Shown here piece by piece: positions 13,160 through 58,943 of a DNA stretch of 64,000 bases. How positions within the stretch are numbered: the stretch's first letter is position 1; each line of letters starts with the position of its first letter. The position numbers were made by a program, and so were the translations under genes. This stretch comes from Candidatus Neptunichlamydia sp. (lineage in GTDB: Bacteria > Chlamydiota > Chlamydiia > Chlamydiales > Simkaniaceae). The stretch lies in NCBI GenBank assembly GCA_965233865.1, contig OZ247587.1:896001-960000 (forward strand), written 5' to 3'. The notes beneath the pieces were generated by a model. It ran no database searches. It saw only the letters and a program-made list of their open reading frames with translations, and was not told where the DNA came from.

Positions 13160-13946
13160 GGGCCTTTGTCAAACATTTACCCTATCATCTTTTTTGATGC
13201 GATACATTACAAAGTCAGGGAAGGAAGCAAGGTGGTAACCAAAGCCGCTTATACCTGCTTAGGAATCAATATAGAGGGCTATAAAGAGATTTTAGGGGCC
13301 TGGATAGGTGAAAGTGAGGGGGCAAAGTTGTGGCTTCAAGTATTCACTGAGTTAAAGAATCGAAGTGTAGAAGACATCCTTATTGCGTGTATGGATGGAT
13401 CCAAGGGTCTGCCTGAGGCCTTGAAATCCGTATTTCCTGATACAGAAGTTCAGCTTTGTATCATCCATATGATTCGAAACTCTATCAAATATGTGCTCTC
13501 TAAACATGTCAAAGAGTTCTTAAAAGATCTCAAGGAAATTTACCAGGCCCCCACTGAGGCAAAAAGAGAAAGTCTTCTGCTTGCTCTGGGCGAAAAATGG
13601 GGAAGGAAATATGCTTTATCTGTCAAGCCTTGGATGACGCATTGGGAAAACCTGAAGACATTCTTCCAGTTTCCTGATGAGGCTCGGAGATTGGTTTACA
13701 CAACGAACGCAATGGAATCACTGCATAGGCAGTTTAAAAAAGTGACAAAAAATAAGGCAGTCTTCCCCTCAGACGAGCCTCTTTTGAAGATGCTGTATCT
13801 GGCTTCTGATGGAATACAAAAGAAATGGACAGTGCCTGTAAGGGGCTGGAAAGAAGCCATCTCATATTTTGGGATAGCTTACGAAGATAGGATCTCAAAA
13901 GGAGTTGAGGCCTAATGACCGTTTACACAGTTTAGATTACACTCCC
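13160..13946 (+). mobile_element. IS256-family element, 5'-truncated (C-terminal transposase at 13166..13915 plus right inverted repeat)
   Basis: PLSNIYPIIFFDAIHYKVRE, DG, QLCIIH, YTTNAMESLH (DDE, mutator family); right end TTTACACAGTTTAGATTACACTCCC. The N-terminal part and left IR are absent. Confidence 0.9.
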
Positions 13947-25368: not shown

Positions 25369-25977
25369 TTACGTTCTATAGTCAATTAGAACAAAGGAAG
25401 TAATTTTCCTTGGGAAATACCCTTTTAAGTAGCGTTTCATATCAAGAAGCTCCCTAGCATCATGCAGGACATCGGTAATGAGAAGAACAGACTTGTCTTG
25501 AAGGCTAGGGCCAGGAAGAAAGCAAGGGCATTTCAGAAGACGCGCTAGACTCCTTGCCAAAAGGTAGGAGGGCTCTCTTTGAGGAAAGAGCCTGTTGGTG
25601 TTTGGAACAACCGCATCGGGGATGGAAAAGGAAGAGCGACTCAGTGCAAGAAGGAGAAAGGCGGCAAGATCTTTCCCTTGCTTGGTTTTAAGAAAATGAT
25701 TGTAGAGAGAAAGGATGGGACCGCACCCTTCAAAAAGAGATAGATGAGGGCGAAGCGGGCGAGGGGATCCTTTGCACGGCTTGCAAGGGGATGGACCGGC
25801 GCAATAGATGCATCGCTCTTTTGAAGGAATCCATTCTATCAACTCAAGGCATGAGGGACAGAGAAGATGGTGCTTCTCTGCAAGGGATCCATCGCAATGA
25901 AGACAGTAAGAGGGATAAAAAAAATGGAGAATAGCTTTAACGCAAGCCGTACTTCGGATTCTCAAAGGTTCCCCCAA
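25369..25977 (-). CDS. ComF-like protein (double zinc ribbon with a degenerate PRTase domain)
   Basis: YPSYCLHC, LCPSC, RCIYC, CKPC; the PRPP loop is degenerate (VLLITDVLHD); start uncertain. Confidence 0.6.
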   Translation of the reverse strand: MGEPLRIRSTACVKAILHFFYPSYCLHCDGSLAEKHHLLCPSCLELIEWIPSKERCIYCAGPSPCKPCKGSPRPLRPHLSLFEGCGPILSLYNHFLKTKQGKDLAAFLLLALSRSSFSIPDAVVPNTNRLFPQREPSYLLARSLARLLKCPCFLPGPSLQDKSVLLITDVLHDARELLDMKRYLKGYFPRKITSFVLIDYRT

Positions 25978-28900: not shown

Positions 28901-30955
28901 TTTTGATTCATATTTTAGATCTGTTGGATCAATACTAAATTCAACCGCTCGAGAATTAAACGTCCCCTCTATCCCAAGCGCCCCTCTCCCTCGAAAATCT
29001 CGGTGCCAAATCATCAAGGGAAGATTTAGCGTCCGAGCTGAGATCTTTTCAGCGTGGAACCACCCTAGTTCTAAGCTTGAAAGATACTCCCCAAGTGCAA
29101 ATTTTTCTAAGTCCCAATTCCACCCAAACTCAATAATATCATCTTTCTCACCCTCTCTTAGGAACCCTAAGCTTCCTTCAACACCCAATCGATCATCAAC
29201 AGTTTTCAGCTTCATATCAAGATCAAGCGCGACAGGCTCTGACATGTTTTTTGGTTTTTGAACCTGCAAAAGTTCGGCTAGTTCCTCAGGATGAAGAAGG
29301 ATATCGACATTAATGTTCAGATGAGAATAGAGTCCTTCAAAAGCAAATTTTCCATTGATTCCTTCGTAGCTGCAAGTCAGAGTAGAGGGTTTAAGATATT
29401 GATCATGCATCGCAACGAAGAGATCAATCCCTTCAATCTTCCGCTTTTGAATACTACACTCTCCCTCTACTACTTTAATTTCCCAATGTGTCCCATCAAA
29501 AAAATCTGGAGTCGAAAAATCAAACTCTCCTTTTCCAAAAATCTCATTCCCCTTCCAATGAAGATCCTTGCCATGAATGCTTCCTATTACCTGAGCTGCT
29601 TTAAAGTCGAGAATTTCACACCGAGTGAGCTTTTTATTTTCAACCCACCCAACGACTCTTCCGTCGAAAGTCCCTTGATCGATTGTAATTTTTTCAACTG
29701 CTGGAATATGGACTCCAACAAAATGTTGAAAGAAAGTGAGCTGATCAGGTGCAAGAGATTTCCCCTCGCCCTCAACAATAAATGTCCCTCCACCCTTTGA
29801 CGTCAACGCAATAAATGCTCCAATTTCTTCTTTATCAAAAAAACGAGCATCAAATGCGACCTTCCAAGTCGTATTGTCTTCAATGATCCCTTCTCCCACC
29901 AGATGAAAAGGAACTTTTTTTTCCTTCCGATGAAAGAGTCCATGGAATTCCATAAGTGGGGCATTCAAACGGCTAAAACGGAGGGAGCCATTGACATCAA
30001 CTGCTTCCCACACTTCATCATTTTTTGGATGATTAAATATTGCATGAAGTCCCGCGACTTCCCCTTCGCCTACAAAGTAAGGCCACAGATTTTCAAAAAA
30101 TGGATGAGACTCCCATCCTTTCATCTCAGCATTAGAAGTAAAGTGCTCTTTCCAAGTCAGGTGATGGAGATTCACATCCAACCCGTACTGTTGATGGGAA
30201 AATGCAAACTCTTCGATCCCCAAAGAGTACTTTACATATTCGATTTGTTTGGGCGCTGATAGAGCAAACTCTACAGTTCCACTAAGCTCTCCATTTTTAA
30301 CTTCCATGCTATTTTGGAGCGATGGAAGAAAAAATCGACTAATCTCAAACGCCCAAACAGTATCAAAACGCTCGAAGTTAAGATTAAAGTGCAATTGTTT
30401 TTCTTCTTTTAAAAAGGTAGCAACAAACGGAGTTTCTCCTGCTCCTTTGCTAATTTTTAGAAATCCTTTTTCCCCTTCCTCAGGACACTCAAATGTTATT
30501 TCAGCAATTTGATCACCAAAAATAAACTCTCCCGCTTGTACTTTCACAGGGGTTTTAAAAAATAGTTTATCGAGAATGTCATAAACACCCTTTTTCTTTT
30601 TTGGCTCCTTAAATTCACTAACCATCAAAGCAACTTGAGGGTGATCCATGATCACTTTCGGGGAAAATCTAAAGGGAAACATTTGAAGCTTGAAGGAAAC
30701 CTTTAAGTCATCGATCTTAACGTTAAAGGCAGGGCCCTCCTTTCCCTCTTTTCTTACAACCCTCACATCATGAAGCACCAGCTGTCCTTCATTGAGGCGC
30801 GCATGATCATAAGAAAAGTTAAGCCTTCCTCCTTTTGGAAGACGCGTTGACAAATAGGATTTAGCTCCAAAATAAATGAGAGGACGATGCCCCACTCCAA
30901 AGGCAATTAAAACCGCAAAAAGGGAAATAAACCAAATCAACGCTTTCTTTCGCAC
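25937..30955 (-). CDS. Large AsmA/TamB/YhdP-like envelope protein (1672 aa)
   Basis: Single N-terminal TM anchor, long alternating beta-strand pattern, AsmA-like C-terminus (PFTLSIGGTFENP). Confidence 0.6.
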   Translation of the reverse strand: MRKKALIWFISLFAVLIAFGVGHRPLIYFGAKSYLSTRLPKGGRLNFSYDHARLNEGQLVLHDVRVVRKEGKEGPAFNVKIDDLKVSFKLQMFPFRFSPKVIMDHPQVALMVSEFKEPKKKKGVYDILDKLFFKTPVKVQAGEFIFGDQIAEITFECPEEGEKGFLKISKGAGETPFVATFLKEEKQLHFNLNFERFDTVWAFEISRFFLPSLQNSMEVKNGELSGTVEFALSAPKQIEYVKYSLGIEEFAFSHQQYGLDVNLHHLTWKEHFTSNAEMKGWESHPFFENLWPYFVGEGEVAGLHAIFNHPKNDEVWEAVDVNGSLRFSRLNAPLMEFHGLFHRKEKKVPFHLVGEGIIEDNTTWKVAFDARFFDKEEIGAFIALTSKGGGTFIVEGEGKSLAPDQLTFFQHFVGVHIPAVEKITIDQGTFDGRVVGWVENKKLTRCEILDFKAAQVIGSIHGKDLHWKGNEIFGKGEFDFSTPDFFDGTHWEIKVVEGECSIQKRKIEGIDLFVAMHDQYLKPSTLTCSYEGINGKFAFEGLYSHLNINVDILLHPEELAELLQVQKPKNMSEPVALDLDMKLKTVDDRLGVEGSLGFLREGEKDDIIEFGWNWDLEKFALGEYLSSLELGWFHAEKISARTLNLPLMIWHRDFRGRGALGIEGTFNSRAVEFSIDPTDLKYESKAIDIMPKGEGKEKAPNCNFFLDFEKGIWQGKIPLKNAQVQEHAFGLSFDSFTSEVDLEGTEFLFQNVDAVADGVHFQAEIAVDFARADRNELTINTYAIDGEAKDVLTFLNHFESFRGVELPLSGAIKSGPGDMHLHAYIGDIEELLEWRIALHLRNGQYPFSKNFGFENLSGNLYYSAEDERFKIEDVAGNLTLTAGNVPKSYSLNVPVLELDAKEGILIYDCRLEAPTYEICRVVGRGAQEGEEFCFHIDTGRTRFFGARMEVETLAFHEGFLSRASVATKLSALDLVHHLDFLNSAGLLPIKEETLDEMRGPHVEGELEFGFLFNRKEESFSFDAKSSSLRLESINLDHLLVHGQRQGDRFTLDRFEAGSLKIHATMVREEARWHLPDLEVLWKKSFLKSGVVTFDEEKRQLQVPLEGLRLNLEEIATLFPHTEFDWDYLKGILFAKGSFIFDFSRGWKDWAFDSELHCVGEEFGKGRLRVESPEALRISYNPQNGFSLGQAAFNFLHPRSNQLWAKCHFDWLGYRDGILKGQGAKLIAPPEMVHFIGQTHSLPHLGYKKEKMIVFGYPIEWENQIEASLDFELGESSMASGYLKEGYYWVGDKAWYLSSCSFAYEKETVTVNVNTLYDELPFDLRADLSFHPHFTSRFVIQETCNDQRGEQPLVIQTDWNANEGFFIQSMDGGVCGLDFSFHHNPKESFLDKMALTGQLKVNVPKLAQLMPEDIRNTVSEFEIGKGYELSGDLVISKTQFDESHFSGYLKGKKFQLMGSLMGTLMSEIDIRPDHIELDNFTISDSSGMFAIESIRMMKKSNEEWELNVPEVVITDFRPSLLKKIGKYPTRIKPLTIRELRANNIRGTLGNASSFVGKGNINFINTFKRDYHILDIPFEILGRLGLDMGLLVPVRGEIEYVIVDGRVYFTELKSSYSEGKRSQFYLSPIEHSYIDFDGNINVNIKMKQYVLLKVTEPFTLSIGGTFENPKYGLR

Positions 30956-34718: not shown

Positions 34719-35550
34719 TATAGCTAAAATATTTCGTTTTAGTTATATTTTTTTGAATGACGTATTCATTAGATTTTAGAAAAAAGGTACTGTTGATCCG
34801 AAGCACAGAAAATTTAAGTTTTTCCAAGACAGCAAAACGTTTTGGTGTAAGTGTAAATAGCATATTTCTTTGGTCTAAGAGGCTAGAGGCAAAGCGCACT
34901 AAAAATAGACCTGCAATAAAGATTGAAAGAGATCGCTTGATGGAGCGATATCAAAAAATACCCTGATGCCTTCAACTATGAACGAGCATATCGTCTCAAT
35001 GTAAGCCCTTCAGGTGTTCGTTGTGCCATGAAGCGGCTAAGAATTAGCTATAAAAAAAACACTTAACCATCCCAAGGCTTGTAAAAAGAAGAGATCTCTC
35101 TTCAGAGAAAAGATTTCAAGGTATGAATGCTTGGGAAAACCGATTGTATACATCGATGAAAGTGGGTTTGCCCATGATATGCCCCGAACGCATGGTTGCT
35201 CAAAAATAGGGGCGTTACTTGGAACAAACCTTCTTACTCTTGCACTGTTTGATTGTAATATTAATACAGATGCCTTTAGCAGTTGGGCAGAGCAAGACTT
35301 GATGCCGAAACTTCCTTCTGAAAGCGTTTTGGTTATGGATAATGCATCGTTTCATAAAAGCAAATCTATGCAAGAAAAGATCGAAGCTGCAGGCCACATC
35401 TTGGAATATTCCCCCCCATATTCCCCAGATTTAAATCCTATTGAGCATAAATGGGCACAAGCAAAATCTAAACGAAGAAAATATCAATGTGGAATTGATG
35501 AACTTTTTAAGGAATATTTCCTATAACTAAATTATATCAACTTAGCTATA
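34719..35550 (+). mobile_element. IS630-family element, copy 2 (decayed)
   Basis: Same TATAGCTAA...TTAGCTATA ends and near-identical body to 14668..15534; YIDESG, MDNASFH, PDLNPIEH; 1-bp insertion in orfA and a 57-bp deletion in orfB. Confidence 0.92.
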
Positions 35551-36029: not shown

Positions 36030-36625
36030 CTTATAAGCTCCATTGAGGCCCAAAGGGCGGGGTGTTTTTCAAGATTAAAATAATCCGAGGAAAGGTTAAA
36101 GTGTTCCTTTTCTCCATTTTTTCGCTTAAAGCGGTAGCAAAATCCGAGGCGCTTAAACTCTACCGGATCATACCCATATAGAAGCTCTTTAGGAAGGGCG
36201 ATTTCAACCCTATATGAGCTCCTCTTCACTTCTGTCTTCATTGTAATAACATCAGAATCTGCCAATTCATGGCTATCTTCGCCTCGAAAACGGGTCACTT
36301 CAATTCCAGTCTCTTCCTCTAAATCAAACGAGAAGTGGTGGCAAAATCGGGTGATGACATTGGATGTCTTAAGATCTCGGGTATCTATAAACAGCTCTAG
36401 CTGATCCCCACTCTCTATTCCCAGTTTGCATCCCATCTCCACATAGATTCCCACAGGGCTCCACAAGAGAGCCAGCGAAATGAGATTTCCTTCTCCAGTC
36501 AGACTTGTGGTATTAGGAAGAAGCCCCTTCTTAAACTGCCGCTTCTTTTCTGCTTTGGAGATTTTCCCTCTCACTTCAAAAAAGGCCGCTGGACTTAAAG
36601 GTTTAAGGTCTTTCAAAACTGACAT
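36026..36625 (-). CDS. Hypothetical protein with a DOMON/CBM9-like fold
   Basis: LELFIDTRD, YRVEIALP and LGFCY resemble CBM9/DOMON-like strands; coupled to its neighbours. Confidence 0.55.
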   Translation of the reverse strand: MSVLKDLKPLSPAAFFEVRGKISKAEKKRQFKKGLLPNTTSLTGEGNLISLALLWSPVGIYVEMGCKLGIESGDQLELFIDTRDLKTSNVITRFCHHFSFDLEEETGIEVTRFRGEDSHELADSDVITMKTEVKRSSYRVEIALPKELLYGYDPVEFKRLGFCYRFKRKNGEKEHFNLSSDYFNLEKHPALWASMELIR

Positions 36626-38999
36626 CGTTAAGCTTTATTGCATTTTTTTTCTGAATCCGCTTAATCAAATCGGTCATGAGGTGGCGCTCCGCCTCTTTTG
36701 ATAGAATCGTTTGTCCTTGCTTCATTTCTGCATTGAAATTCCCACTAGGAACTAATTTCTTCTGAAGCTGGAAAAACGAAAGACGATTTTCAGAGCGATG
36801 CTCCACATTAGACCAGCTCTTTTCTATCATTGAAAAGAGCTCCAAAGAAAACCAAGGACTACGCTCATGGTTTTTGAACATTGTATTTTCTTTTACAAGG
36901 GACCATTGGGAGCTGAGATCTTCCTTTACTCCAAGCTTTCCATCTTCTTTAAAAGCCTCTGTTTGCTTCAAGAATTGACTCCCCTCACCAACCCTACGAA
37001 TGTCCTTTTCTGCCACCATCATATGTGGAAAAAGGCGGTGCTTAGGGTAAAATTCGTCAAGCCTTGCAAATCGGTCCTCAGGAAGTTCAACCCCAAGTTG
37101 CGACATTTGAAAATCAATCTTCCTTAAGGTATCTGCAAAGAGGATCCGACCCACTTCTTTCTCCACCTCGCTTAAAGGCTTCCAATCGTTTTCTTCTGTT
37201 TTGAAAACAGCAGGATTTTTGATCCGCACTTTAGGGTAAGATGTCTCCAAATGCATTTGAAGCAATGTGTCTAAAATTCCGCGTTCGCTTGCTTCCTCAA
37301 AGGTTAAAACCATTCGAGTGAGATCCCGATCCACTACTTGAAAGCGGTAATAGATTTCTCCATCCCCTGTAAATAGTTCCAACTGATTTTTTGCTGCAAG
37401 AGCTTCAGGATCGCTATCGAGTTCCCCCTTTAGCACTGCTATAGAAAATAAGTTAGAAAGTTTTTTGCTAGACTCTATTCCTTCAAAAGGAGAGTTTCTT
37501 CCACTCGGTGAAAAACTCACAGTGCGCAAATTTATATGCTTTTGGTTGAGCGCTTCTTGAATCCATTCAGGGTGATTTTCAACAATCCTTCCTCTTGAAA
37601 ATCTGTCGATCTTTCCGCGAAGTTCAGGTCCTAATTCTTCAAGCGCTGCAAAATATTCTCCTGCATCTTTAGCATTTTTAAGTTTCAATTGTGGAAACTC
37701 TTTTGTTAAAAGTGCAAAATTCTCTTCCTCAAGCTGCCACTCCCATGTTTCTTTAAGACTCACACCAAGAGCAACTTCATCCTTTTTTACTTCAGCAATT
37801 TCTACCAAAAACCGCTGTTCAATAAGCTCAGGGGAGATTTTTTCAATCTCACTAGCACTTGTAAATGTTTCTGGAAGTATCAACCCTTCCCTTCGGTTTT
37901 GCGAAACTTGATCAAGATAGAGCTCGAGTTTCATCAAGGTAGAGAAATCTTTGATATCCAAAGAACCGGGCAAATGATACAAATCCACTTCAGCTGTCTT
38001 CGAAGCGAAACTATAGAATGCCTCGTAGACATGAGGGTCAACAAAAACAGCTCCACCTACATCTTCAAATAAGCGGCGAAATAGCATAATTTTTTGCCAC
38101 ACTCCAACAGCTTCTTTTTCATTCATCCCAAGAGAGTGTAGCTGCTGCTGCCAAAGCTGCGAGATTTCTTCTTCAGAAACCTCTGATTTTCGAAGCTGCG
38201 TTTGCATTGATTCGTAACCATTACGAATCAAATCAACACGCGCTTCTTCAAAGCTAACTTTATATCCTTGCTCCTTGGCAATAAGCTCTGCATTGATCAC
38301 AAACTGGGCCACCAGCTCAATAAACTGAGGGCCAAACCACTCTTCTAAGCTCCGACAATGAAAAACATTTAAGTTCACTCTTTCTAATGCTGGGTCAGGC
38401 TTAATCCAGTTGTAGTGCTTTTGCTGGAACATTAAATATTCACGTAGAATGTTTGGAGGAAATGCAGATTCTCCGAGATACAAATTCACAAGAAGCCCAA
38501 AAGAATCCGGATTCACTTCTCCAGTCGTATCCAAAAAAGCATCCAAATAAGCTTTCTGCGAAGGTAGAACTTGTGACCACATATTTTCTACGCTGATAAA
38601 AGGGGCTGTCGGATGACGATAAGGATGAAACGCCTTATGGTGGGTCATGCGCTCGTTAAGGTTTTCTTTCAAATCTTCAAAATAAGCATGCGCGAGCAAT
38701 ACTCCAATACCGGTTCCCAAAAGATCCTTTCTTACTACCCCATCATTGAAAAAGTTGGGCATCATTCCTTTTTCCGTAAGCGCTAAATCATTTCGATCAC
38801 TCGATAAGAAGCGAACCATATGGCCCAGCTCACTTTTCATAATTTTTGATCCATCGACCCCTTGGCAAATACAACTATTCTCAGCTTTTTGAGGAGCATT
38901 GGTTGCACTATGCGTTCCGAAAAAGGAAAAGGAAATGACGATGACAACAGCGATAACGATAAAAAAATAACGTTGGTATTTGCGAAAAAATTCCAGCAT
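36603..38999 (-). CDS. SurA-N/PpiD-like membrane-anchored periplasmic protein (CT283-like)
   Basis: MLEFFRKYQR + TM ...ISFSFFG, typical of the PpiD/SurA_N start; chlamydial position upstream of gcvH. Confidence 0.65.
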   Translation of the reverse strand: MLEFFRKYQRYFFIVIAVVIVISFSFFGTHSATNAPQKAENSCICQGVDGSKIMKSELGHMVRFLSSDRNDLALTEKGMMPNFFNDGVVRKDLLGTGIGVLLAHAYFEDLKENLNERMTHHKAFHPYRHPTAPFISVENMWSQVLPSQKAYLDAFLDTTGEVNPDSFGLLVNLYLGESAFPPNILREYLMFQQKHYNWIKPDPALERVNLNVFHCRSLEEWFGPQFIELVAQFVINAELIAKEQGYKVSFEEARVDLIRNGYESMQTQLRKSEVSEEEISQLWQQQLHSLGMNEKEAVGVWQKIMLFRRLFEDVGGAVFVDPHVYEAFYSFASKTAEVDLYHLPGSLDIKDFSTLMKLELYLDQVSQNRREGLILPETFTSASEIEKISPELIEQRFLVEIAEVKKDEVALGVSLKETWEWQLEEENFALLTKEFPQLKLKNAKDAGEYFAALEELGPELRGKIDRFSRGRIVENHPEWIQEALNQKHINLRTVSFSPSGRNSPFEGIESSKKLSNLFSIAVLKGELDSDPEALAAKNQLELFTGDGEIYYRFQVVDRDLTRMVLTFEEASERGILDTLLQMHLETSYPKVRIKNPAVFKTEENDWKPLSEVEKEVGRILFADTLRKIDFQMSQLGVELPEDRFARLDEFYPKHRLFPHMMVAEKDIRRVGEGSQFLKQTEAFKEDGKLGVKEDLSSQWSLVKENTMFKNHERSPWFSLELFSMIEKSWSNVEHRSENRLSFFQLQKKLVPSGNFNAEMKQGQTILSKEAERHLMTDLIKRIQKKNAIKLNDVSFERP

Positions 39000-44322: not shown

Positions 44323-45057
44323 TTATGAGCCCTTAGCTCCAACTTGAGACTCCCAATCCTTTAGGTACTCAAGAAGTTCTTTCTTCTCAGGCTGCGAGCG
44401 AAACAATTCTAAAGCTTCATCACTGCTACTAAGATGAGCAAGCTTTGCTAAGAGATGGAGGTGCCGTTTGTCATCACAGCCAAAAAGGAAAAAGAGAGTG
44501 TGGACAGGAGCTTCGTCTAAGGCACCCCAATCGATCGGATCCTTTGGGAAAACAATTACAACCACGTCTGTTGGTCCTTTCAACAAAAAATCTCGTGTGT
44601 GAGGAACAGCAATCCCATTATTCAAGGCTGTAGGCATCAACTTTTCTCGATCGAGCAGAAGATCAGACATAACCGAAGGATCCATTCCCAATTCTCCCGA
44701 AACACGATCCATAGTTTCTCGAATAATCGCGTCTTTTTTTGTAGACTTTAGATCTGTGAAAACCCCGCCTTTATGCACTGCACGATACAGGCTAAACTGT
44801 TGCATTCCCTTTTTGCCATCTTGTTCTTCATTCTTTTCTTTTTTGGGAGGGAAAATTTGTTCTTCTGTGGAAGGAAGGAAGTTTCCTGTCTCTTTTTGAA
44901 GACGACAGCTAAGCATCCAGTTTTCTATTTCAATGCGACTGAATCGGTATTGGTGATGAAGACGATAAGCAGGGATTTTTCCTTCTGCAAGCCACCGTCG
45001 AATGGTTGTTTCGGAAACATTTAATAACTCTGCTACATCTTTAATCTTTAGATCCAT
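44323..45057 (-). CDS. ptsN: PTS EIIA(Ntr)-like protein with an N-terminal excisionase-type HTH
   Basis: VAELLNVSETTIRRW...IPAY; DRE.LMPTALNNGIAVPH phospho-His motif. Confidence 0.85.
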   Translation of the reverse strand: MDLKIKDVAELLNVSETTIRRWLAEGKIPAYRLHHQYRFSRIEIENWMLSCRLQKETGNFLPSTEEQIFPPKKEKNEEQDGKKGMQQFSLYRAVHKGGVFTDLKSTKKDAIIRETMDRVSGELGMDPSVMSDLLLDREKLMPTALNNGIAVPHTRDFLLKGPTDVVVIVFPKDPIDWGALDEAPVHTLFFLFGCDDKRHLHLLAKLAHLSSSDEALELFRSQPEKKELLEYLKDWESQVGAKGS

Positions 45058-45226: not shown

Positions 45227-45727
45227 CTATAAACCCTCAAACAGGGCGAGAACTTCTTCTTTTGTCCTAGAGTTGATCAAATTTTTTCTCCGGTCTTCAT
45301 CTTTAATCGCTGCTGTTAAAAGAGAAAGAATATTTAGGTACTCTGTCTGCCGATTAGCAGGCCCTCCAATCAAAAAGATGAGCCGGACAGGAGGCGTACT
45401 TTCTGTATCCCATTTAATCCCTTCCTTGGATTTTAGAAGACCCACAGCTAAAAAGAAACGGTTAAATGTGGGAAGTTTTGCATGAGGAATAGCAACTCCC
45501 ATTCCAATTCCAGTCGATACAATTTTCTCTCTTTTGTAGATTGCTTCGCGAAATTCTACTTTATCACCGAGATCACCTACATCCGCAAGAGTTTCTACCA
45601 TTTGATCTAGCGCCTTGTCGCGACTTTCTGCTTCTAAAAAGCAGACTACTCCCTCTTGGATAAATTCTGAAAGAGTCACATTTTCTCCTTTCTTAAAGAG
45701 ATGGTTAATGCGTTCCAGTATGGCCAA
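45227..45727 (-). CDS. ptsN: PTS EIIA(Ntr)-like protein
   Basis: [19 protein letters not shown]. Confidence 0.85.
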
Positions 45728-51568: not shown

Positions 51569-51586
51569 TAGGTAGATCTCTACCTA
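51569..51586. terminator. Hairpin between the converging small ORF and amidohydrolase gene
   Basis: TAGGTAG-ATCT-CTACCTA. Confidence 0.4.
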
Positions 51587-52471
51587 TATATCGTAAAATG
51601 CTTTGGCATTTTCATAGAACAGCTTGCGTTGAACTTCCGGCGCATAGCGAGAAAATGCGGTACGAAAGATTTCTATAAGCTTTCCGTAGGTTAGAAATAA
51701 GGAATCTGGAGGAATATTGCTTCCAAAAAAGCACCGATCTTCTCCGAAAGCTTCGATACCTGCATGGAGAAACCTCTCAATATTCTCTTGATCATGGGAT
51801 TTAAATATAAGTCCAATTCCACTGAGCTTCAGATGAACATTCAGATTCTCCGCGAGAAGCTTGATGTCCCTCTTCCAAGCTTCAAAACCATTGTCTGTGA
51901 TATCACGGGGCCACCCCAGATGATCTAAGACAAAGGTCACATTAGGGGTCGACTTAACAAGCTTCGCCGCATCTGGGATTTGATGGCCAAATAGAGAAAT
52001 ATCAAAGGTAAGAATCTGCTTCGATAGGGATTGAAGACCTTTTTGAAAATGGGGTTCACTCATGAGATCTGGATCAGAAGATCCTGCTTCATGAAAAAGG
52101 ATCTGGCGCACGCCACGGACGTTAGGAAAATGGCAATGATCTTTTAACACGTTTTCAATATCAGGATCTCTAAGGTCCGCTTGAAACACAATAACATTTG
52201 GAAACCCATGGTTATCGGCAATTTTTTGAAGCCATTCTGTTTCATAAAGCGACTTCTTAAAAACAGGATTCGCTTCTAGGTGCACACACTTTGTGACATG
52301 GTAGGGCTTAACCAAGCTCTCATAATCGGTAATCAAAAAGTTCTTGCACAGCTTATTGCCTTTTCCGATAACCTCTTCAAAGTGCCCCTCTTTTTCTGTA
52401 AGCCAGGGGTATTCACCGTCATCTAGGTCCCATAGATGCATATGCCCATCGATAATTTCGTCTGTATACAT
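51584..52471 (-). CDS. Amidohydrolase_2 family protein (sugar-lactonase-like)
   Basis: IIDGHMHLWD, VRGVRQ, VLDHLGWP, NVHLKLSG, FGSN.P, NAKAFY; likely start 52471. Confidence 0.85.
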   Translation of the reverse strand: MYTDEIIDGHMHLWDLDDGEYPWLTEKEGHFEEVIGKGNKLCKNFLITDYESLVKPYHVTKCVHLEANPVFKKSLYETEWLQKIADNHGFPNVIVFQADLRDPDIENVLKDHCHFPNVRGVRQILFHEAGSSDPDLMSEPHFQKGLQSLSKQILTFDISLFGHQIPDAAKLVKSTPNVTFVLDHLGWPRDITDNGFEAWKRDIKLLAENLNVHLKLSGIGLIFKSHDQENIERFLHAGIEAFGEDRCFFGSNIPPDSLFLTYGKLIEIFRTAFSRYAPEVQRKLFYENAKAFYDI

Positions 52472-52656
52472 TGTTGATGCCTTTGTGAAAAATCCTGTCC
52501 TAAAATTCACATTACTGGTTTAATGAATTTTTTTGCACGTGCGTACTAATTTTTGATGGGCCAGAACTTTGCAATGATAAGAAATTCAGTTTTTGTAGTA
52601 AAAAATTGATGCAGAGTAATTCCCATCTCTGATATGAAAATAAGATCCTTCGGATA

Positions 52657-55600
52657 ATGATAAAATACGTGATGAAAAGCAGAACTGTAACACTCTTCCT
52701 CTACTACATATTTTTATGTTTTTCTTTATCCACCGCTTATGCTGCAAAAGGTCCAATCTCACACCCTCAAGCAGATCTCTCACCAGAAAAGGGTCTAATA
52801 CCTGATGCTTCCTCAGGACCAGGATATACGATTAACTTCGATAACGTTCCAGTTCTAGAAGTCGTCAAGTTTATCAGCAAAATTGGGAAGGTTAACTTCG
52901 TCTATGATGAAACAGCCTTAAACTTCAATGTTACAATCGCTTCAGAAGAGCCTACTCCTCTCGTTCATGTAATGGCGGCATTTATTCAGGTCCTTAGAAT
53001 CAATGGTCTAGACCTGATTGAGCAAGGGAACACTCTGGTGATTTCCAAAGGAGCGGGCATTAGGCAGATTGCAACAGTCGTCTCCAAAGAAGTCCCCCTT
53101 ACTGGGGATTATATCCCGCCGATTATGACCCGTGTATTTGATGTGAAAAATGCTAACCCCGATACGTTAGCAGGAATCATTCGACCTCTTCTCTCTTCAT
53201 CTGCAATCATAGAAGTGTCTGAGGCGACCCGTCACATTATCGTGACTGACATCACTCAGAACATAGAAGAAGTGCATAAGCTCTTTTACACTCTAGATGT
53301 TCCCAGGTCTGCTTTGAGCCTTGACTCATTTTCTTGCCATAACAGCTCTCCTGAAGAGCTAATCGCTCTTGCAAACCAAATCATGATCCCTATTTCTGAA
53401 GGGAATCCCTTAATATTTGTTCCTCAAAACCAAACACGCACGATCTTTATAGTTTCAACGCCCTTTCTTATCGAACAGTCGATCATGATCTTAGAAGATC
53501 TTGATACCCCTCCCTCTCTATCTAGAGGAATCCCTGGGCCGCTCACTGCAAACAACATTTTAATCTACCACATTAAATACAAGCCTGCTGATGCCTTGAT
53601 GCAAGGTGTCAAAGGGGTTGAAGGAAATCTTCACCAGCTAGGTCCTTCTTCTCAAAATTTAGTCGGTGCCTTAGGCTCCATGAAGTTTGTGAAACAAAGT
53701 CACTCTCTGTTTTTTGTTGGAGATACTCAGTCCCTTGATGAAGTCAAAACCATCTTGGATAGCTTGGATGTTCCCTATAGCGAGCAGGAACTCGAATATG
53801 TTCGAGGGGGGTTCTACATCTACAAAATTAAATATAATGATGAACAAGAAATTGCCAGCTCTCTTGACAAGCTTGTTAAAAACTTAAAAAATTCTGATCA
53901 TCCAGATACCGATCTTATCAGCACTATTCAATCAATGAAGTATATCAAGGAGAACGACTCTTTGATGTTCACCGGAGATCAACGGTCCATTAACCGTCTA
54001 AAAGAGATTTTGACAACGTTTGATGTACCTCAACATCAGATTTCGAAGATCCCCATGAGTAACCACTTCTTCATCTACAAGCCCACAAATGAGACTGCAG
54101 AAGACTTGTTAACTCAGGTAAAAAACACCTCTAAAAATCTTAAGAATTCTAATTTTACCGATGCAGCATTTCTGAAAGCTCTAAGCTCTATAACCCTTTC
54201 TGATGAAGGCAAATCCGTCACGTTTACTGGAGACCGACAATCCCTTGATCGAATTAAGGCTTTAGTCGCAGGGATGGATCAACCTAAAGGACCGGCTTCT
54301 GCTGAAACAAAAAATTTTATCTATCAGATCCAATTTGTAAATCCCGAATACATTGAAGGAGGGCTTCAAAGTATAGCAGAAACGCTCCCTTCTGATAACC
54401 CTTTAACTCTGACAATCGATAACATGAAATATGTCAAGCAGTCAAACTCGATTGTTTTTAGAGGGTCAGAAAACACGATTAGCGAGATCAAAACAATCTT
54501 GCCAACGCTTGATAATCAGCAAATTTCTCAAAATCAAGCAGCTGGAAAGTCTACGTACTTTGTCTACAAATTGCAAAATGCTTCCGGTAATCAAGTCATT
54601 AAAGAACTCAAGCAAACAGCTCAATCCATCAAGGGTTCTACTACCCAAGATAAAGAAGTTATACAATCAATCAACAGTATTGATTGTATTGAGTCAACAA
54701 ATTCTCTAGTTATTACAGGCCCTCCCTCTGTTATTGATCGCATTAGAGGCATGATTGAAAAATATGATACTCATCGTGCAGAGGCGACTTCGTTCTATGT
54801 CTATAAACCAACAGGTATCACTGCTGAAAAATTCCAAAAACGTGCTCTCAGCGCTGCAAAAGAAATGGATGCTGCTGGACTTGATAATAGTAGCTTTATT
54901 GAAGCTATGGGCTCCGCGAAAATTGTATCGAATGGTTCTGCTGTAATGTTTACCGGTACTCCTCAAAGCATCGAAAAACTCAAAGAGATGATTACATCTT
55001 TTGACTCCTATAAAGCAGATCAGCCAAAAACTTCAGAATTTTTTATGTACAAACCTAAGGTGATTTCGGCAGAACAACTTAGAAATGACGTCTTAAAAGC
55101 TGCTAAACAGCTTGAGAAGTCAGGACTCCAAGATCCTGAGTTAATTAGCGCCATGGACTCTGCCAAAATCTCCTCTAGTGGAGATCGTGTTGTCTTTACG
55201 GGAACACCTGAAGCTATTTCAAAAATAAAAATGATGGCTGAACAGTATGATAATCAAGAGGAACAAACCAAAGCTTCTCAGTATTTTATTTTCAAACCGC
55301 AGCATCAAACTCCTGAAGAGATTATCAAACAATCACAACATGCTGCCGATCAAATGGAAGATAAGGGTCTCACTGACAGGAGCCTGATTACAGCTCTTAG
55401 CTCTGCAACAATTGTTTCCCAGGGAACTGGTGTTCTATACACTGGAACCAAGGATGCCATAATGCAAATTGAGGACCTTGTTCCAACCTTTGACAATACA
55501 AAGGCTACCTCCCCCGATGCAAACCAATTCTTTGTGTATACTCCTGTTCATATTACCGCCGATCAGCTAAGGCAACACTCACGTCGTGTTGCAGATGACA

Positions 55601-57480
55601 TGGAAGGTGCTGGGTTTAGCGATAAAAGCTTGATTAGCACCCTGCAAAACACCCGCCTTGCTTCTAACAGAAAAGGTGTTTTATTTACGGGAACTTCAGA
55701 GTCAATTGCCAAAGTTCAACAATTACTCCCCTCTTTAGATAGTCCAACGGATGATCAGCCCAAACAAGTTGGGAAGACCACTTTCATGATCTACAAGATC
55801 AAGTATCTAACAGGGCAAACCTTAATGGGATACTTAAGAAATATGGCCTCAGACTTGCAACGCGCTGGGTCTACTCAAGATGACTTAATGACAACTTTGA
55901 ACAATATGCGCTATGTTCAGGATACTAACTCGATTATCTTTACTGGAACCCCTCATGCTATTCAAGAATCTCTGGCCCTAGCTCAGAAATTTGATATTCC
56001 TTCGCTTGCTCAAGAAGCTCCCATTCGTGCCCCTACTGACTATCTGATTTACAAACCTAAGTTCGTTCCTGGAGAAGAATTAATTCGTGTACTCCACGAT
56101 TTTGAGCAGAATTTAAGAACATCTGGCGTCACTGATAAAGAACTCTTTGATGTGATCAATAACCTCAAGTGGATGGAAAGGACCTCTTCAATTCTAGTCT
56201 CAGGCGATGAAAAGGAGACAAAAAAAGTTTTAGAGCTTCTAGAACGTTTTGATATTCCTGGACCTGGAATTCCTGAGGGTGCACCTGGAATTGAAACTGT
56301 CTCTGATATGAGCTTCCTTATTTACAAGTTACAGTATCATTCAGGAGAAGAAATCCAGTCAGCAATTAAGCTTATCGGAGTAGACCTTGGAAAATCAAAA
56401 TCAAATAGTGATTTAGCCCAAGCAATTCGAACACTTCAATGGATCGAGGTCACCAATTCCCTTGTTGCCACAGGGCAAGCAGATTCCTTAGGGAAACTCA
56501 AGGAGTTGATCAAGAGCATTGACATCCCTCTTAAGCAAGTCTTTGTAGAAATTTTAGTGATTGAAACGCAAAACGCCGACACTCTAGAATTTGGTCTTCA
56601 CTGGGGGTCTCAAGGTGTCTACCGCAATAAGTTCTCTTATGGCACATATGGCAATCCTATAAATACATCGAACAACAAAGATCCACTCGTGTCCTTTAAC
56701 GAATCCGTACAAAGAATTACTGGATCAGCAACTCCGAGTGGAACCATGATTCCAGTCGTATCAGGTGGAGATCTTGGAGTAATTGGGGATATTATCCTCC
56801 ATAAAGGACAGACCTATTTTGCACTAGGTTCTTTGATCAATGCACTCAAGAATGATGGTGATTCTACGATTGTAATGAACCAGAAAATCATCACTCAGGA
56901 CAATAAAATGTCTACCATCTTCTCAGGGCAGAACATTCCCTATACTGGATCCCTTGTCACACAAACGGGTGCGAATCAAATCACAACAGCCAACTTGGAA
57001 TATCGCGATGTGGGAATCAGCCTAAGTATTACTCCTGTTGTTGGGAATAACGACATTATCACACTCATGATTGAGGAAGACATTTCCGAACAAATCAATA
57101 CCGATCAAGGAAGTAGCGTAAACTCTGATCAGGTTCAAGGAATTACAACAAGTAAAAACAGCACGAAGGTTGTTGTCAGTGTTCCAGACAAAAGCTTCCT
57201 TGTCTTAAGTGGGTCGATTCAGGACTCTAAAACACGCACCAAAACAAGCATTCCCTGCCTTGGAGGTCTTCCTCTGATTGGTGCGGCCTTTTCCGATGTC
57301 AGTCTGGATAGCTCGGTTGCAAACATTGTCTTCTTTGTGAAGCCGCAAATTATCAAATCCTTCGATGTCTACTCGGAGATTACCGAAAGACAGGAAGATA
57401 TTTTCCGCGGTTACTCAGGTGACTCTGAAGACTTTGATATTGGTGTCGAACTTGTCAAAACCCCAGATGACACTTATTAG
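52657..57480 (+). CDS. Giant secretin (chlamydial CdsC/SctC-like) with N0, N1, N2, about 12 tandem N3-type domains and a C-terminal secretin barrel
   Basis: Signal peptide (..STAYA); N0 GYTINFDNVPVLEVVKFISKI; repeats F(I/V)YK...FTG...D; secretin core KQVFVEILVIE, YRDVGISLSITP, IPCLGGLPLIGAAF, FFVKPQII. Confidence 0.9.
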   Translation: MIKYVMKSRTVTLFLYYIFLCFSLSTAYAAKGPISHPQADLSPEKGLIPDASSGPGYTINFDNVPVLEVVKFISKIGKVNFVYDETALNFNVTIASEEPTPLVHVMAAFIQVLRINGLDLIEQGNTLVISKGAGIRQIATVVSKEVPLTGDYIPPIMTRVFDVKNANPDTLAGIIRPLLSSSAIIEVSEATRHIIVTDITQNIEEVHKLFYTLDVPRSALSLDSFSCHNSSPEELIALANQIMIPISEGNPLIFVPQNQTRTIFIVSTPFLIEQSIMILEDLDTPPSLSRGIPGPLTANNILIYHIKYKPADALMQGVKGVEGNLHQLGPSSQNLVGALGSMKFVKQSHSLFFVGDTQSLDEVKTILDSLDVPYSEQELEYVRGGFYIYKIKYNDEQEIASSLDKLVKNLKNSDHPDTDLISTIQSMKYIKENDSLMFTGDQRSINRLKEILTTFDVPQHQISKIPMSNHFFIYKPTNETAEDLLTQVKNTSKNLKNSNFTDAAFLKALSSITLSDEGKSVTFTGDRQSLDRIKALVAGMDQPKGPASAETKNFIYQIQFVNPEYIEGGLQSIAETLPSDNPLTLTIDNMKYVKQSNSIVFRGSENTISEIKTILPTLDNQQISQNQAAGKSTYFVYKLQNASGNQVIKELKQTAQSIKGSTTQDKEVIQSINSIDCIESTNSLVITGPPSVIDRIRGMIEKYDTHRAEATSFYVYKPTGITAEKFQKRALSAAKEMDAAGLDNSSFIEAMGSAKIVSNGSAVMFTGTPQSIEKLKEMITSFDSYKADQPKTSEFFMYKPKVISAEQLRNDVLKAAKQLEKSGLQDPELISAMDSAKISSSGDRVVFTGTPEAISKIKMMAEQYDNQEEQTKASQYFIFKPQHQTPEEIIKQSQHAADQMEDKGLTDRSLITALSSATIVSQGTGVLYTGTKDAIMQIEDLVPTFDNTKATSPDANQFFVYTPVHITADQLRQHSRRVADDMEGAGFSDKSLISTLQNTRLASNRKGVLFTGTSESIAKVQQLLPSLDSPTDDQPKQVGKTTFMIYKIKYLTGQTLMGYLRNMASDLQRAGSTQDDLMTTLNNMRYVQDTNSIIFTGTPHAIQESLALAQKFDIPSLAQEAPIRAPTDYLIYKPKFVPGEELIRVLHDFEQNLRTSGVTDKELFDVINNLKWMERTSSILVSGDEKETKKVLELLERFDIPGPGIPEGAPGIETVSDMSFLIYKLQYHSGEEIQSAIKLIGVDLGKSKSNSDLAQAIRTLQWIEVTNSLVATGQADSLGKLKELIKSIDIPLKQVFVEILVIETQNADTLEFGLHWGSQGVYRNKFSYGTYGNPINTSNNKDPLVSFNESVQRITGSATPSGTMIPVVSGGDLGVIGDIILHKGQTYFALGSLINALKNDGDSTIVMNQKIITQDNKMSTIFSGQNIPYTGSLVTQTGANQITTANLEYRDVGISLSITPVVGNNDIITLMIEEDISEQINTDQGSSVNSDQVQGITTSKNSTKVVVSVPDKSFLVLSGSIQDSKTRTKTSIPCLGGLPLIGAAFSDVSLDSSVANIVFFVKPQIIKSFDVYSEITERQEDIFRGYSGDSEDFDIGVELVKTPDDTY

Positions 57481-57567
57481 TTTCAACCTGAGATTTGTAA
57501 AGCACTAGCCTTAAGAGGGCGTCAAACAGCTGGACTTTTCGTTCGATGAATGCTAGGCTGTTTCCCA

Positions 57568-58521
57568 ATGAAGTATGCAAAATTAATCCTCACCGTTTTT
57601 TTATTGCTCGCCGTGACAGGTTGCTACAAGGTCCCTGATAAAATTGAGCCACAGGTGAATTTCTCGGTGCAAGACAAGTACTTAAAGCAATTACCTCCCG
57701 CTTTCCCCCCACTAGACTCAAGTGAGAAAGGAGAATCGTGGGGACAGGAGTATCTGATTGCTCAAAAATTTGCAGAACATTTGGACCTTTACCGCGCAAT
57801 TACGACATTTAAACGTGCGGAGTTTTTATTACCAGCGGGGAAGCTTAACCGTCTTGAAGAGATTCAGTACCAGATCCTCTTGAGCTACTATTTAGGAAAG
57901 CGATATGAGCAAGTAACGCAAGAGTTTATCCACTCATCTCTATACTCAGCGACAGAGAGTTTTCCTGCTTACCATGATCTTCTGATCATAATGTATGAAA
58001 GTTACCTGGAAGTGGGAGAAGAGCAAAAAGCGGATTACGTCTTTAAAGTGATAGAACACCGTTTTCCTGAAGCAGCAAAAAGGCTCAAAGTTTCAACGGC
58101 CCTGATTGAAGGGAATCTGGACACACTCCAAACGATTCAGAAGGAAGGCCCTTCAAAGGAATACATCACACAATTTCTAAACACTTACGAAGCAAAAAAA
58201 AAGTCTGTTAAAAAAGCACAAACGCTCAATGCCCTCCTGCCAGGTGCAGGGTTCTTGTATATCGGGCAAAAACAATCAGCATTTACCTCTTTTCTCTTAA
58301 ATGGCCTCTTTATCTGGGCGTCGGTTCACTTTTACACTAAAGGAAACTATGCAGCCGGAGCAATCTTCACAAGCTTTGAAACAGGCTGGTATTTTGGAGG
58401 GATCTATGGAGCTGGAGAAAGTGCTAAGTTTTACAATGAACGTCTTTACGAAGAGAATGTCTGCCCCATCCTTAACAAACATAGCTCCTTTCCTGTCTTA
58501 ATGCTGAAGTTTGGGTTCTAA
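57568..58521 (+). CDS. TPR-containing lipoprotein with a C-terminal hydrophobic (TM2-like) segment
   Basis: Lipobox AVTGC; TPR-like YRAITTFKRAEFL; LLPGAGFLYIGQ; upstream of a yidD-like gene. Confidence 0.7.
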   Translation: MKYAKLILTVFLLLAVTGCYKVPDKIEPQVNFSVQDKYLKQLPPAFPPLDSSEKGESWGQEYLIAQKFAEHLDLYRAITTFKRAEFLLPAGKLNRLEEIQYQILLSYYLGKRYEQVTQEFIHSSLYSATESFPAYHDLLIIMYESYLEVGEEQKADYVFKVIEHRFPEAAKRLKVSTALIEGNLDTLQTIQKEGPSKEYITQFLNTYEAKKKSVKKAQTLNALLPGAGFLYIGQKQSAFTSFLLNGLFIWASVHFYTKGNYAAGAIFTSFETGWYFGGIYGAGESAKFYNERLYEENVCPILNKHSSFPVLMLKFGF

Positions 58522-58943
58522 TGAAAACACTCCTATTACTCATTTTGTCCATTCCTCTATTTGCTGAAGTGGGGTTTGTGAAACCATGGGGAAGAGATTC
58601 TGAACTGGTCCCTAGCACTAGTCTCATTCCTCCCCTTCCAGAACAGTCAGGGCTCATGACTAAACTGAGCGAATATATTATCCTTTTTCATCAAAATATC
58701 ATCTCCCCTGTTGATGGCCCCCGTAGTCACTTCCGTCCCACAAGCTCACGCTATATGCTTCTGGCAATGAGAAGAAATGGCTTTATCAAAGGGTACATTA
58801 TGGGATGTGACCGCCTCCTACGAGAAAATAAGGAGGAGTGGGTCTATCGCACAGTAACAATTAATGGAGAGACTTATAAGTGGGACCCAACTTTTTCATC
58901 ATCAAAAAGAAGCGGCTCCTCCAAGAAGGCTACTTCATCATGA
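58521..58943 (+). CDS. yidD: YidD-like membrane protein insertion efficiency factor
   Basis: FHQ.IISPVDGPRSHFRPTSSRY...GCDRLLREN. Confidence 0.75.
   Translation: MKTLLLLILSIPLFAEVGFVKPWGRDSELVPSTSLIPPLPEQSGLMTKLSEYIILFHQNIISPVDGPRSHFRPTSSRYMLLAMRRNGFIKGYIMGCDRLLRENKEEWVYRTVTINGETYKWDPTFSSSKRSGSSKKATSS

Follow-up and report, generated by a model that had tools for sequence, protein, structure and literature searches.

How many periplasmic domains can a secretin carry, and to which apparatus does such a protein belong? Both questions are raised by a gene within a 64,000-nucleotide (nt) stretch of Candidatus Neptunichlamydia sp. (GenBank assembly GCA_965233865.1, contig OZ247587.1, positions 896,001 to 960,000), in the following called the window. 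On its forward strand, an open reading frame (ORF) with ATG start (52657..57480) encodes, upon translation, a secretin of 1607 amino acids (aa) with 12 N3-type domains in a row. In secretins characterised so far, the periplasmic rings number three or four. The initial annotation of the gene, made from the sequence alone, regarded it as a stand-alone secretin that could build a much longer tube than usual. We consider it fairly probable that the 1607-aa protein is the outer-membrane secretin belonging to the type III secretion system (T3SS) injectisome, i.e., SctC (CdsC in Chlamydia), with its N3 domain multiplied to 12. This degree of confidence refers to our explanation as a whole, that is, a T3SS secretin, stacked rings and a longer ruler protein. 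Below, positions within the gene and its surroundings are those of the window; genomes of the comparison set are numbered G and families f, where f1 denotes the Simkaniaceae-like family.

Domain architecture and identity of the giant secretin

The protein is composed of a signal peptide, N0, N1, N2, 12 N3-type repeats of about 82 aa and an intact secretin core. The probable signal peptide (52657..52743; aa 1-29) is a hydrophobic stretch ending in AYA and was read from the translation by eye, no predictor being used. It is followed by N0 (52831..53082; aa 59-142), which is GspD-like and matched by Pfam PF21305 at aa 59-126 (31.9 bits, cut-off 27). An AlphaFold2 (AF2) model of aa 25-300, with a predicted local distance difference test (pLDDT) value of 77, shows N0 and two beta-alpha-beta-beta-alpha domains, namely N1 (53122..53295; aa ~156-213; pLDDT 84-88) and N2 (53317..53502; aa ~221-282; pLDDT 85-96). 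In addition, aa 55-218 match the crystal structures of N0-N1 from XcpQ/GspD by sequence in a PDB search.

The repeat array (53557-56556) was delimited based on the positions of a heptad motif and a profile built from the 12 units. It consists of R1 (53557..53811; aa 301-385), R2 (53812..54066; aa 386-470), R3 (54067..54312; aa 471-552), R4 (54313..54555; aa 553-633), R5 (54556..54792; aa 634-712), R6 (54793..55038; aa 713-794), R7 (55039..55281; aa 795-875), R8 (55282..55527; aa 876-957), R9 (55528..55782; aa 958-1042), R10 (55783..56040; aa 1043-1128), R11 (56041..56313; aa 1129-1219) and R12 (56314..56556; aa 1220-1300). For R1-R11, repeat counting across relatives provides a further basis, while R12 is the canonical N3 adjoining the core, since it aligns with the N3 of solved GspD structures as well as with the single repeat of a 564-aa paralogue discussed below. 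The first residue of each unit is the start of its heptad motif, with a spacing of 79-91 aa. All 12 motifs quoted in the initial annotation are thus present, and its array boundaries (~53550-56520) agree closely with ours. The 12-unit profile recovers every repeat (i-E 1e-27 to 1e-34) and matches N1 and N2 only weakly and partially. Pfam's Secretin_N model (PF03958) reaches 232.6 bits (cut-off 28.2) distributed over 10 stretches. Pairwise identities of the repeats average 24% (range 11-41%), and the units closest to each other are R6-R9 (32-41%).

The fold of the repeats was assessed for R6-R8, with 140 three-repeat segments, a random pick from 142, as input alignment. The resulting AF2 model (pLDDT 81) comprises three beta-alpha-alpha-beta-beta-alpha domains joined by linkers of low pLDDT (55-58 at two junctions). 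A Foldseek search with this model provides 17 matches with E<=1e-3, and all those listed are secretins. The best one is ExeD (9e-7), and the top structural matches are the N domains of type II secretion system (T2SS) secretins, namely ExeD, GspD and XcpQ. That is, the repeats adopt the N-domain fold. A complex prediction for four copies of R6-R8 (alignment A3) scored 0.00 without control runs and counts neither for nor against ring formation.

Core and C-terminal tail (56557..57480; aa 1301-1607) include the full Pfam Secretin domain (PF00263) at aa 1396-1567 (nt 56842-57357; 108.9 bits, cut-off 27.5), which covers profile positions 1-169 of 169. Searched with phmmer, the core matches 10 T2SS chains of GspD type solved by cryo-electron microscopy (E 7e-30 to 5e-25). 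PF00263, N0 and the N-type domains together make the protein a member of the secretin superfamily, and N0, N1, N2 and the 12 N3-type repeats add up to 15 periplasmic domains per subunit before the pore. The architecture proposed in the initial annotation is thus supported by Pfam, the 12-unit profile, AF2 and Foldseek alike.

An assembly artefact, already deemed unlikely in that annotation, was considered and rejected: Tandem Repeats Finder reports no DNA-level repeat within the gene, the repeats are only 11-41% identical, and orthologues show a matching repeat order. The gene is also identical, i.e., without differences, indels or joints, in contigs of three runs from one study; these runs are probably the source data of the assembly and therefore no independent support.

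For the assignment to an apparatus, we used a gene tree ('quick' IQ-TREE run) of 53 chlamydial secretins, based on their last 340 residues. It separates, at a support of 100, a GspD clade of 6 rows from an SctC clade of 47 rows. Members of the latter are the T3SS-operon secretins of the Chlamydiaceae-like genome G009 (920 aa), of G044 (1115 aa) and of G099 (1160 aa), and the 1607-aa protein sits in the f1 clade within it (support 99). It is thus orthologous to the secretins of chlamydial T3SS operons. The likeness to CdsC noticed in the initial annotation is borne out by this tree, and exactly one such repeat is indeed present in the CdsC-type protein from a Chlamydiaceae-like genome. The reading as a stand-alone secretin or as part of a distinct apparatus finds no support, since the gene is an orthologue of a T3SS secretin gene that resides within the T3SS operon in relatives, including G061 from the same genus.

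The genome (1.83 Mb, one contig) encodes three secretins of 781, 564 and 1607 aa, along with one SctV and one SctJ. The 781-aa protein is a true GspD heading a GspD-GspE-GspF-GspG (pseudopilin) operon at ~1,245,007-1,251,400. We thus discarded the possibility that the giant protein is a T2SS paralogue, given this separate operon and the position outside the GspD clade. In 5/5 f7 genomes examined, no SctC-type secretin besides the multi-repeat one occurs, the other secretin being of GspD type.

Profile scores, taken at face value, contradict this assignment. The NCBIfam model for SctC (TIGR02516) is missed with 88.2 bits (cut-off 238.45), while the one for GspD (TIGR02517) is passed with 362.9 bits (cut-off 351.35), the latter being a sum over 5 stretches that arises because N domains are repeated. 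The operon-encoded CdsC-type protein of G009 scores alike, with 81.8 for the SctC and 299.5 for the GspD model. As this protein also stays below the SctC cut-off, TIGR02516 does not define the chlamydial clade. Low SctC and high GspD scores fit the recruitment of the chlamydial T3SS secretin from T2SS, which is described in excerpted text of Abby and Rocha 2012 (PMC3459982); likewise, an excerpt of Nans et al. 2015 (PMC4682100) refers to CdsC as T2-like.

Repeat number and the length of the SctP-like protein

Secretins were found in 150/150 chlamydial genomes scanned, with two each in Chlamydiaceae-like genomes (~920-950 aa and ~755 aa). From the secretin and SctP-domain matches in these genomes, we picked a sample and counted repeats on 44 SctC-type proteins from 41 genomes. 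N3-type repeats number 8-14 in f1 (14 in G053), 6-12 in f7 and 4-21 in f9, i.e., 4-21 over the 24 genomes of these families studied. A single N3-type repeat is present in f4, f6, f8, f12, f16, f17, f21 and f24, apart from two f6 proteins with 2. Expanded orthologues are also common in public data: 119/120 of the best database matches have at least 8 repeats, and the matches range from 7 to 29 repeats and up to 2810 aa. We found none of them characterised in print. Their source names are 'hypothetical', 'secretin N-terminal domain-containing', 'GspD/PulD' or 'type III secretion protein C'.

Position for position, the repeats of congeners are orthologous, and the array ends (R1-R2, R10-R12) are best conserved. 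G061 has one extra repeat in mid-array and G054 is without counterparts of R3-R6, such that repeat numbers of 8, 12 and 13 occur within one genus. This indicates that whole repeats are still gained or lost in mid-array. Of the 'old, selected expansion' proposed initially, the old age of the repeats thus stands, while the array as a whole keeps changing.

Other lineages of the set have lengthened their SctC-type proteins by different routes. The one of G064 (f16; L031:1361-8911 (-)) has 2516 aa with a 1768-aa extension before N0. In the 1934-aa protein of G074 (f8; L029:1505-7309 (-)), N0 and the last N3 are separated by about 1400 residues recognised neither by Pfam nor by the repeat profile. 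Two tandem SctC-type genes (~916-956 aa each) are located behind the T3SS cluster in the f6 genomes G023 (L049) and G121 (L052), and these copies form two orthologous pairs in the core tree.

A gene between SctO and SctQ varies along with the array. Its C-terminal ~125 aa are homologous to DUF5421/CdsP of G009, while the rest is low-complexity and variable. We call its product SctP-like based on this position and the C-terminal similarity, both of which apply here. A profile of the C-terminal domain matches 136/150 chlamydial genomes, which suggests that homologues of this CdsP domain occur phylum-wide. CdsP is stated to be restricted to Chlamydiaceae and a sister family in an excerpt of PMC10448858. 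The SctP-like protein has 539 aa here vs. 281-311 aa in Chlamydiaceae-like genomes.

We compared SctP-like length and repeat number for the 24 f1, f7 and f9 genomes with loci retrieved. G025 was left out; its mismatch (1763-aa secretin, 208-aa SctP-like protein) results from a contig end that cuts the SctP ORF. Length increases with repeat number (Pearson r=0.84, slope 24.7 aa/repeat, intercept 205), and it does so within each family: r=0.96 and slope 30 for f1, r=0.94 and slope 28 for f7, r=0.80 and slope 20 for f9. When G147 (21 repeats, 670 aa), as the extreme genome, is removed, r is still 0.80. Felsenstein's independent contrasts, computed on the 'quick' gene tree of secretin cores with arbitrary resolution of polytomies and not on a species tree, yield r=0.84 (p=2e-7; 17 concordant, 4 discordant, 2 zero). 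Within one genus, 8, 12 and 13 repeats go along with 421, 539 and 584 aa, respectively. None of the control genes follows repeat number (SctO r=-0.42, SctQ r=0.18, Pkn5 r=0.16).

In the full set of 40 genomes, SctP-like length is correlated with the secretin's extent between N0 and C-terminus (Pearson 0.69, Spearman 0.80; with G104 removed, Pearson 0.85), while extensions before N0 show no positive correlation (r=-0.28). Total secretin length is a poor predictor over all families (r=0.48). The mismatch of G064 (2516 vs. 300 aa), for instance, is due to its long extension preceding N0. SctD of this genome shows the usual periplasmic domains PD1, PD2 and C within 581 aa, so the extension is on the secretin side. 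That is, of the partner proteins that might be extended as well, SctD is normal and the ruler candidate is longer.

N-domain rings measure about 3-4 nm in height, and the Yersinia ruler reportedly accounts for ~1.9 Angstrom of needle per residue. At this value, 22-30 aa per repeat correspond to ~4-6 nm and would fit one stacked ring per repeat for the needle to cross. Needle length is linear with SctP size according to an excerpt of Nans et al. 2015 (PMC4682100). From its position and homology, we assume that the SctP-like protein acts as a needle ruler. The scaling of its length with repeat number is indirect support for an extended periplasmic tube, and to this extent for the longer tube suggested initially.

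Genomic context and short copies of the secretin and the SctP-like protein

In G009, the T3SS operon has the order SctN-SctO-DUF5421(CdsP)-SctQ-Pkn5-secretin. The same order (SctN-SctO-SctP-SctQ-Pkn5-secretin) is found in G044, followed by a ~330-aa gene, YidD, EngA and an SNF2 helicase. G099 shows SctQ-Pkn5-secretin-317 aa-YidD, the f1 genome G135 a contiguous Pkn5-secretin (1542 aa)-tetratricopeptide repeat (TPR) lipoprotein, and G147 again Pkn5-secretin-TPR lipoprotein. In G061, an amidohydrolase and a 236-aa gene are inserted between Pkn5 and the 1688-aa secretin. The location behind SctQ-Pkn5 is thus common to G061 (with two genes inserted), G135, G099, G147, G044 and G009.

The genome studied here is the only one in which the gene has moved, and its location counts against our assignment: its T3SS cluster (SctD, needle-region genes, SctN, SctO, two SctP-like genes, SctQ, Pkn5) ends secretin-free at Pkn5 (~1,559,000), and the giant gene is located ~600 kb away at ~948,657-953,480. 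In accordance with the initial annotation, no T2SS or T3SS genes, Gsp genes included, were found among the other ORFs of the window. The divergent neighbour of the giant gene is an Amidohydrolase_2 gene (51584..52510, minus strand; Pfam). Since an amidohydrolase sits between Pkn5 and the secretin in G061 and G053, this gene marks the side of the rearrangement. The giant gene is thus parted from the T3SS operon by a rearrangement in this genome. Two truncated transposase genes of the window, 13166-13915 (+) of the Mutator family and 35131-35526 (+) of DDE_3 type, fit a rearranged genome.

The downstream block is kept, i.e., the secretin is followed by a 323-aa TPR lipoprotein, YidD, EngA and an SNF2 helicase. 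The lipoprotein gene (57550..58521, plus strand) has a lipobox, recognised by eye, and its product belongs to chlamydial 'lipoprotein/TPR' clusters. It adjoins the secretin in G044, G055, G099, G135, G102 and G147, and the pair of TPR lipoprotein and YidD is found behind SctC in f1, f6, f7, f9 and f12 genomes. With this query, no match was obtained in 3/3 Chlamydiaceae-like genomes or in G074, which does not prove absence. TPR lipoproteins serve as pilotins of type IV pilus (T4P) secretins. Judged from its conserved place 3' of SctC in non-Chlamydiaceae chlamydiae, the TPR lipoprotein could be an accessory or pilotin-like factor. The gene of the YidD-family membrane-insertion efficiency factor (58521..58943, plus strand; Pfam PF01809) is the third of the secretin-lipoprotein-YidD block, whose order is common to G044, G055, G099, G102 and G147.

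Elsewhere in the window, two long minus-strand ORFs (25937-30955, 1672 aa; 36603-38999, 798 aa) are without Pfam match at E<=1e-8. A further minus-strand gene (44323-45057) encodes a MerR-type helix-turn-helix domain fused to a phosphotransferase system (PTS) EIIA-2 domain. Another EIIA-2 gene (45227-45727) adjoins it, and both encode PtsN-like regulators of chlamydial type.

The question raised initially whether a normal cdsC exists besides the giant gene has a partial answer. A 564-aa SctC-type secretin with N0, one N3-type repeat and core is encoded outside the T3SS cluster at 549252-550946 (+) of the genome contig (L005:4253-5947). Its N0 is 30% identical to that of the giant, and its repeat and core are 50% identical to R12 and core of the giant. 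Similar paralogues of ~450-585 aa are found in f1, f9 and some other families, and those of 564-aa type form a clade beside the f1 giants in the core tree. The gene is on its own, with a PspC-like gene, a peptidase, an MIP channel and GlpK/GlpD nearby; as the neighbourhood differs between this genome and G053, the proximity to the PspC-like gene is probably coincidental.

Similarly, there are two adjacent SctP-like genes between SctO and SctQ (L028:9719-11338 (-), 539 aa; L028:8904-9590 (-), 228 aa; ~1,561,903-1,564,337 of the genome). The short copy directly follows the long one and is present in 18/18 f1 and 13/22 f9 genomes scanned, with lengths of 196-241 aa in the 14 genomes where it was seen in the loci. 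At least three secretin matches are found in 34/38 genomes with two SctP-like matches vs. 21/112 of the others; these numbers were counted by hand, related genomes are not independent, and 'three matches' does not always mean a short paralogue. For a one-repeat secretin, the regression predicts a ruler of ~230 aa, and its agreement with the short SctP-like lengths supports, speculatively, two machine sizes. It equally leaves room for a T3SS that uses the short secretin instead. It is thus conceivable, though on balance doubtful, that f1/f9 chlamydiae build two injectisome sizes on one export apparatus, one with the giant secretin and the 539-aa ruler and one with the 564-aa secretin and the 228-aa ruler. 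If so, both forms could serve different developmental stages or periplasm widths, and ring number and ruler length would be a co-evolving, tunable pair that sets machine length.

Proposed machine, rival explanations and known systems

We propose that the single N3 between N2 and the pore was multiplied in f1, f7 and f9, leading to the 12 copies found here. Each repeat would form one ring of the multimer, as the N domains of solved secretins do, and the rings would stack into a tube about 11 rings longer than in Chlamydia. N0/N1 at the base of the tube would still dock on the inner-membrane ring of normal-sized SctD/SctJ. The needle would have to cross a much longer basal body, which would be compensated by a proportionally longer SctP-like ruler (~22-30 aa per repeat). 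Taken together, the data suggest an unusually long injection machine.

Beside the limits of the contrast tree and the location named above, several observations weigh against this proposal. Ring formation, straight stacking and physical length are inferred, and a basal body exceeding the one of Chlamydia by ~40-50 nm is extreme in physical terms. The 539-aa SctP-like protein is without Pfam or NCBIfam match, and all SctP-like lengths are ORF lengths from the first possible start codon, such that start choice affects them. Among 16 genomes without repeat arrays, total secretin length shows no relation to SctP-like length (r=0.06), and G104 (f21), with a 985-aa secretin and a 735-aa SctP-like protein (L048:1864-4071 (+)), is an unexplained outlier. 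Finally, 564 aa is a usual size of injectisome secretins, i.e., the short paralogue could be the T3SS secretin in use.

Three other explanations were weighed against a stacked tube with an adapted ruler. The array of the T3SS secretin might be a flexible, compressible or folded-back spacer, comparable to an accordion, or might bind periplasmic partners, such that the gain in length is far below one ring per repeat. Excerpts of two papers are compatible with such behaviour: the basal body of C. trachomatis contracts from 34 to 29-30 nm via compaction of linked periplasmic domains (Nans 2015, PMC4682100), and the periplasm locally widens from 13.8 to 28.6 nm around injectisomes (Nans 2014, PMC4336559). 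The low linker pLDDT at two junctions of the R6-R8 model and the flexible rings of Thermus PilQ, described in an excerpt of PMC5745081, point in the same direction. However, the 22-30 aa of ruler per repeat would correspond, at ~1.9 Angstrom per ruler residue, to about one full ring height and not to a small fraction of it, and we consider a spacer unlikely overall. Another option for f1 and f9 is that the 564-aa paralogue has become the injectisome secretin, leaving the giant as a separate conduit, envelope tether or spacer. The compact layout of the short protein (N0, one N3 and core), which has the size of classical injectisome secretins, would suit this role, as would the distance of the giant gene from the T3SS genes in this genome. 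Yet it is the giant and not the short gene that keeps the place behind Pkn5 in G061, G135, G099 and G147, and no genes of another apparatus accompany it. Moreover, the short paralogue is missing in 5/5 f7 genomes examined, and the ruler covariation holds inside f1 and f9 themselves. Such a takeover thus appears improbable to us.

The remaining explanation concerns the covariation itself, which might be non-functional and reflect lineage history or a shared expansion of repeats and low-complexity sequence, with repeat number being nearly neutral. Indeed, the 24 genomes stem from only three families, and related ones do not count as independent. The SctP-like protein is of low complexity in its variable part, and single genomes depart from the trend: G098, G057, G086 and G090 combine 7-8 repeats with 312-321 aa, while G099 has 422 aa at 6 repeats. 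On the other hand, the contrasts retain the full correlation, the family slopes are alike, the three neighbour genes lack a positive trend, and extensions before N0 do not co-vary. We therefore give little credence to a coincidental link and retain the stacked tube with its longer ruler as the preferred explanation.

Among known systems, CdsC of Chlamydia (~920 aa) is closest to the 1607-aa protein, given the same clade of the core tree, the operon position that relatives of the giant share with it, a T2SS-like core, the order N0-N1-N2-N3 and the same profile behaviour (SctC model failed, GspD model best). In contrast, one N3-type repeat and a ~250-285-aa extension before N0 are found in the CdsC-type proteins of Chlamydiaceae-like genomes, while the 1607-aa protein is without such an extension (N0 from aa 57-59), has 12 repeats and is encoded away from the T3SS cluster. 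For Chlamydia, the excerpt of PMC4682100 reports a basal body of 34 nm and a CdsC with a 250-residue N-terminal domain, and gives its pilotin as not known. GspD, PulD, ExeD and XcpQ provide the best sequence and fold matches for core and N domains, but these T2SS secretins comprise N0-N3 only, and the 1607-aa protein is outside the GspD clade.

The only characterised precedent we found for an extended secretin is PilQ of Thermus thermophilus, a T4P/DNA uptake secretin. In an excerpt of PMC5745081, its multiplied beta-alpha-beta-beta-alpha N domains are shown as stacked rings in a wide periplasm, and the six rings N0-N5 are called an 'unusual number' and the secretin 'one of the largest'. PilQ differs in belonging to a T4P machine and another secretin subfamily, and its six rings compare with 15 periplasmic domains in the 1607-aa protein and with up to ~32 in relatives, where 29 repeats add to N0-N2. 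The rulers YscP, InvJ and CdsP resemble the SctP-like gene by its place between SctO and SctQ and, for CdsP, the common C-terminal domain of ~125 aa. In Yersinia, ruler length sets needle length (Journet 2003, as cited in an excerpt of Nans et al. 2015, PMC4682100). The SctP-like proteins, as putative rulers, differ in that their length tracks secretin ring number and not surface structures, and in the second short copy of f1 and many f9 genomes. In full-text literature, we found no published description of multi-repeat chlamydial SctC or of the SctP link; the imaging work of Pilhofer et al. 2014 lies outside that coverage.

In summary, an entire branch of chlamydiae is equipped with injectisome secretins of 7-32 periplasmic domains. 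The copy number shifts even inside a genus and goes along with how long the presumed needle ruler is. Automatic annotation labels these proteins 'hypothetical', 'secretin N-terminal domain-containing' or GspD, by which the T3SS secretin of the group is concealed. As some members such as Simkania are culturable, cryo-electron tomography offers a direct test of the prediction. Should the rings stack, these injectisome basal bodies would far exceed all others known in length, and they would provide a natural length series to test the molecular-ruler model and how the machine copes with a wide, plastic periplasm.

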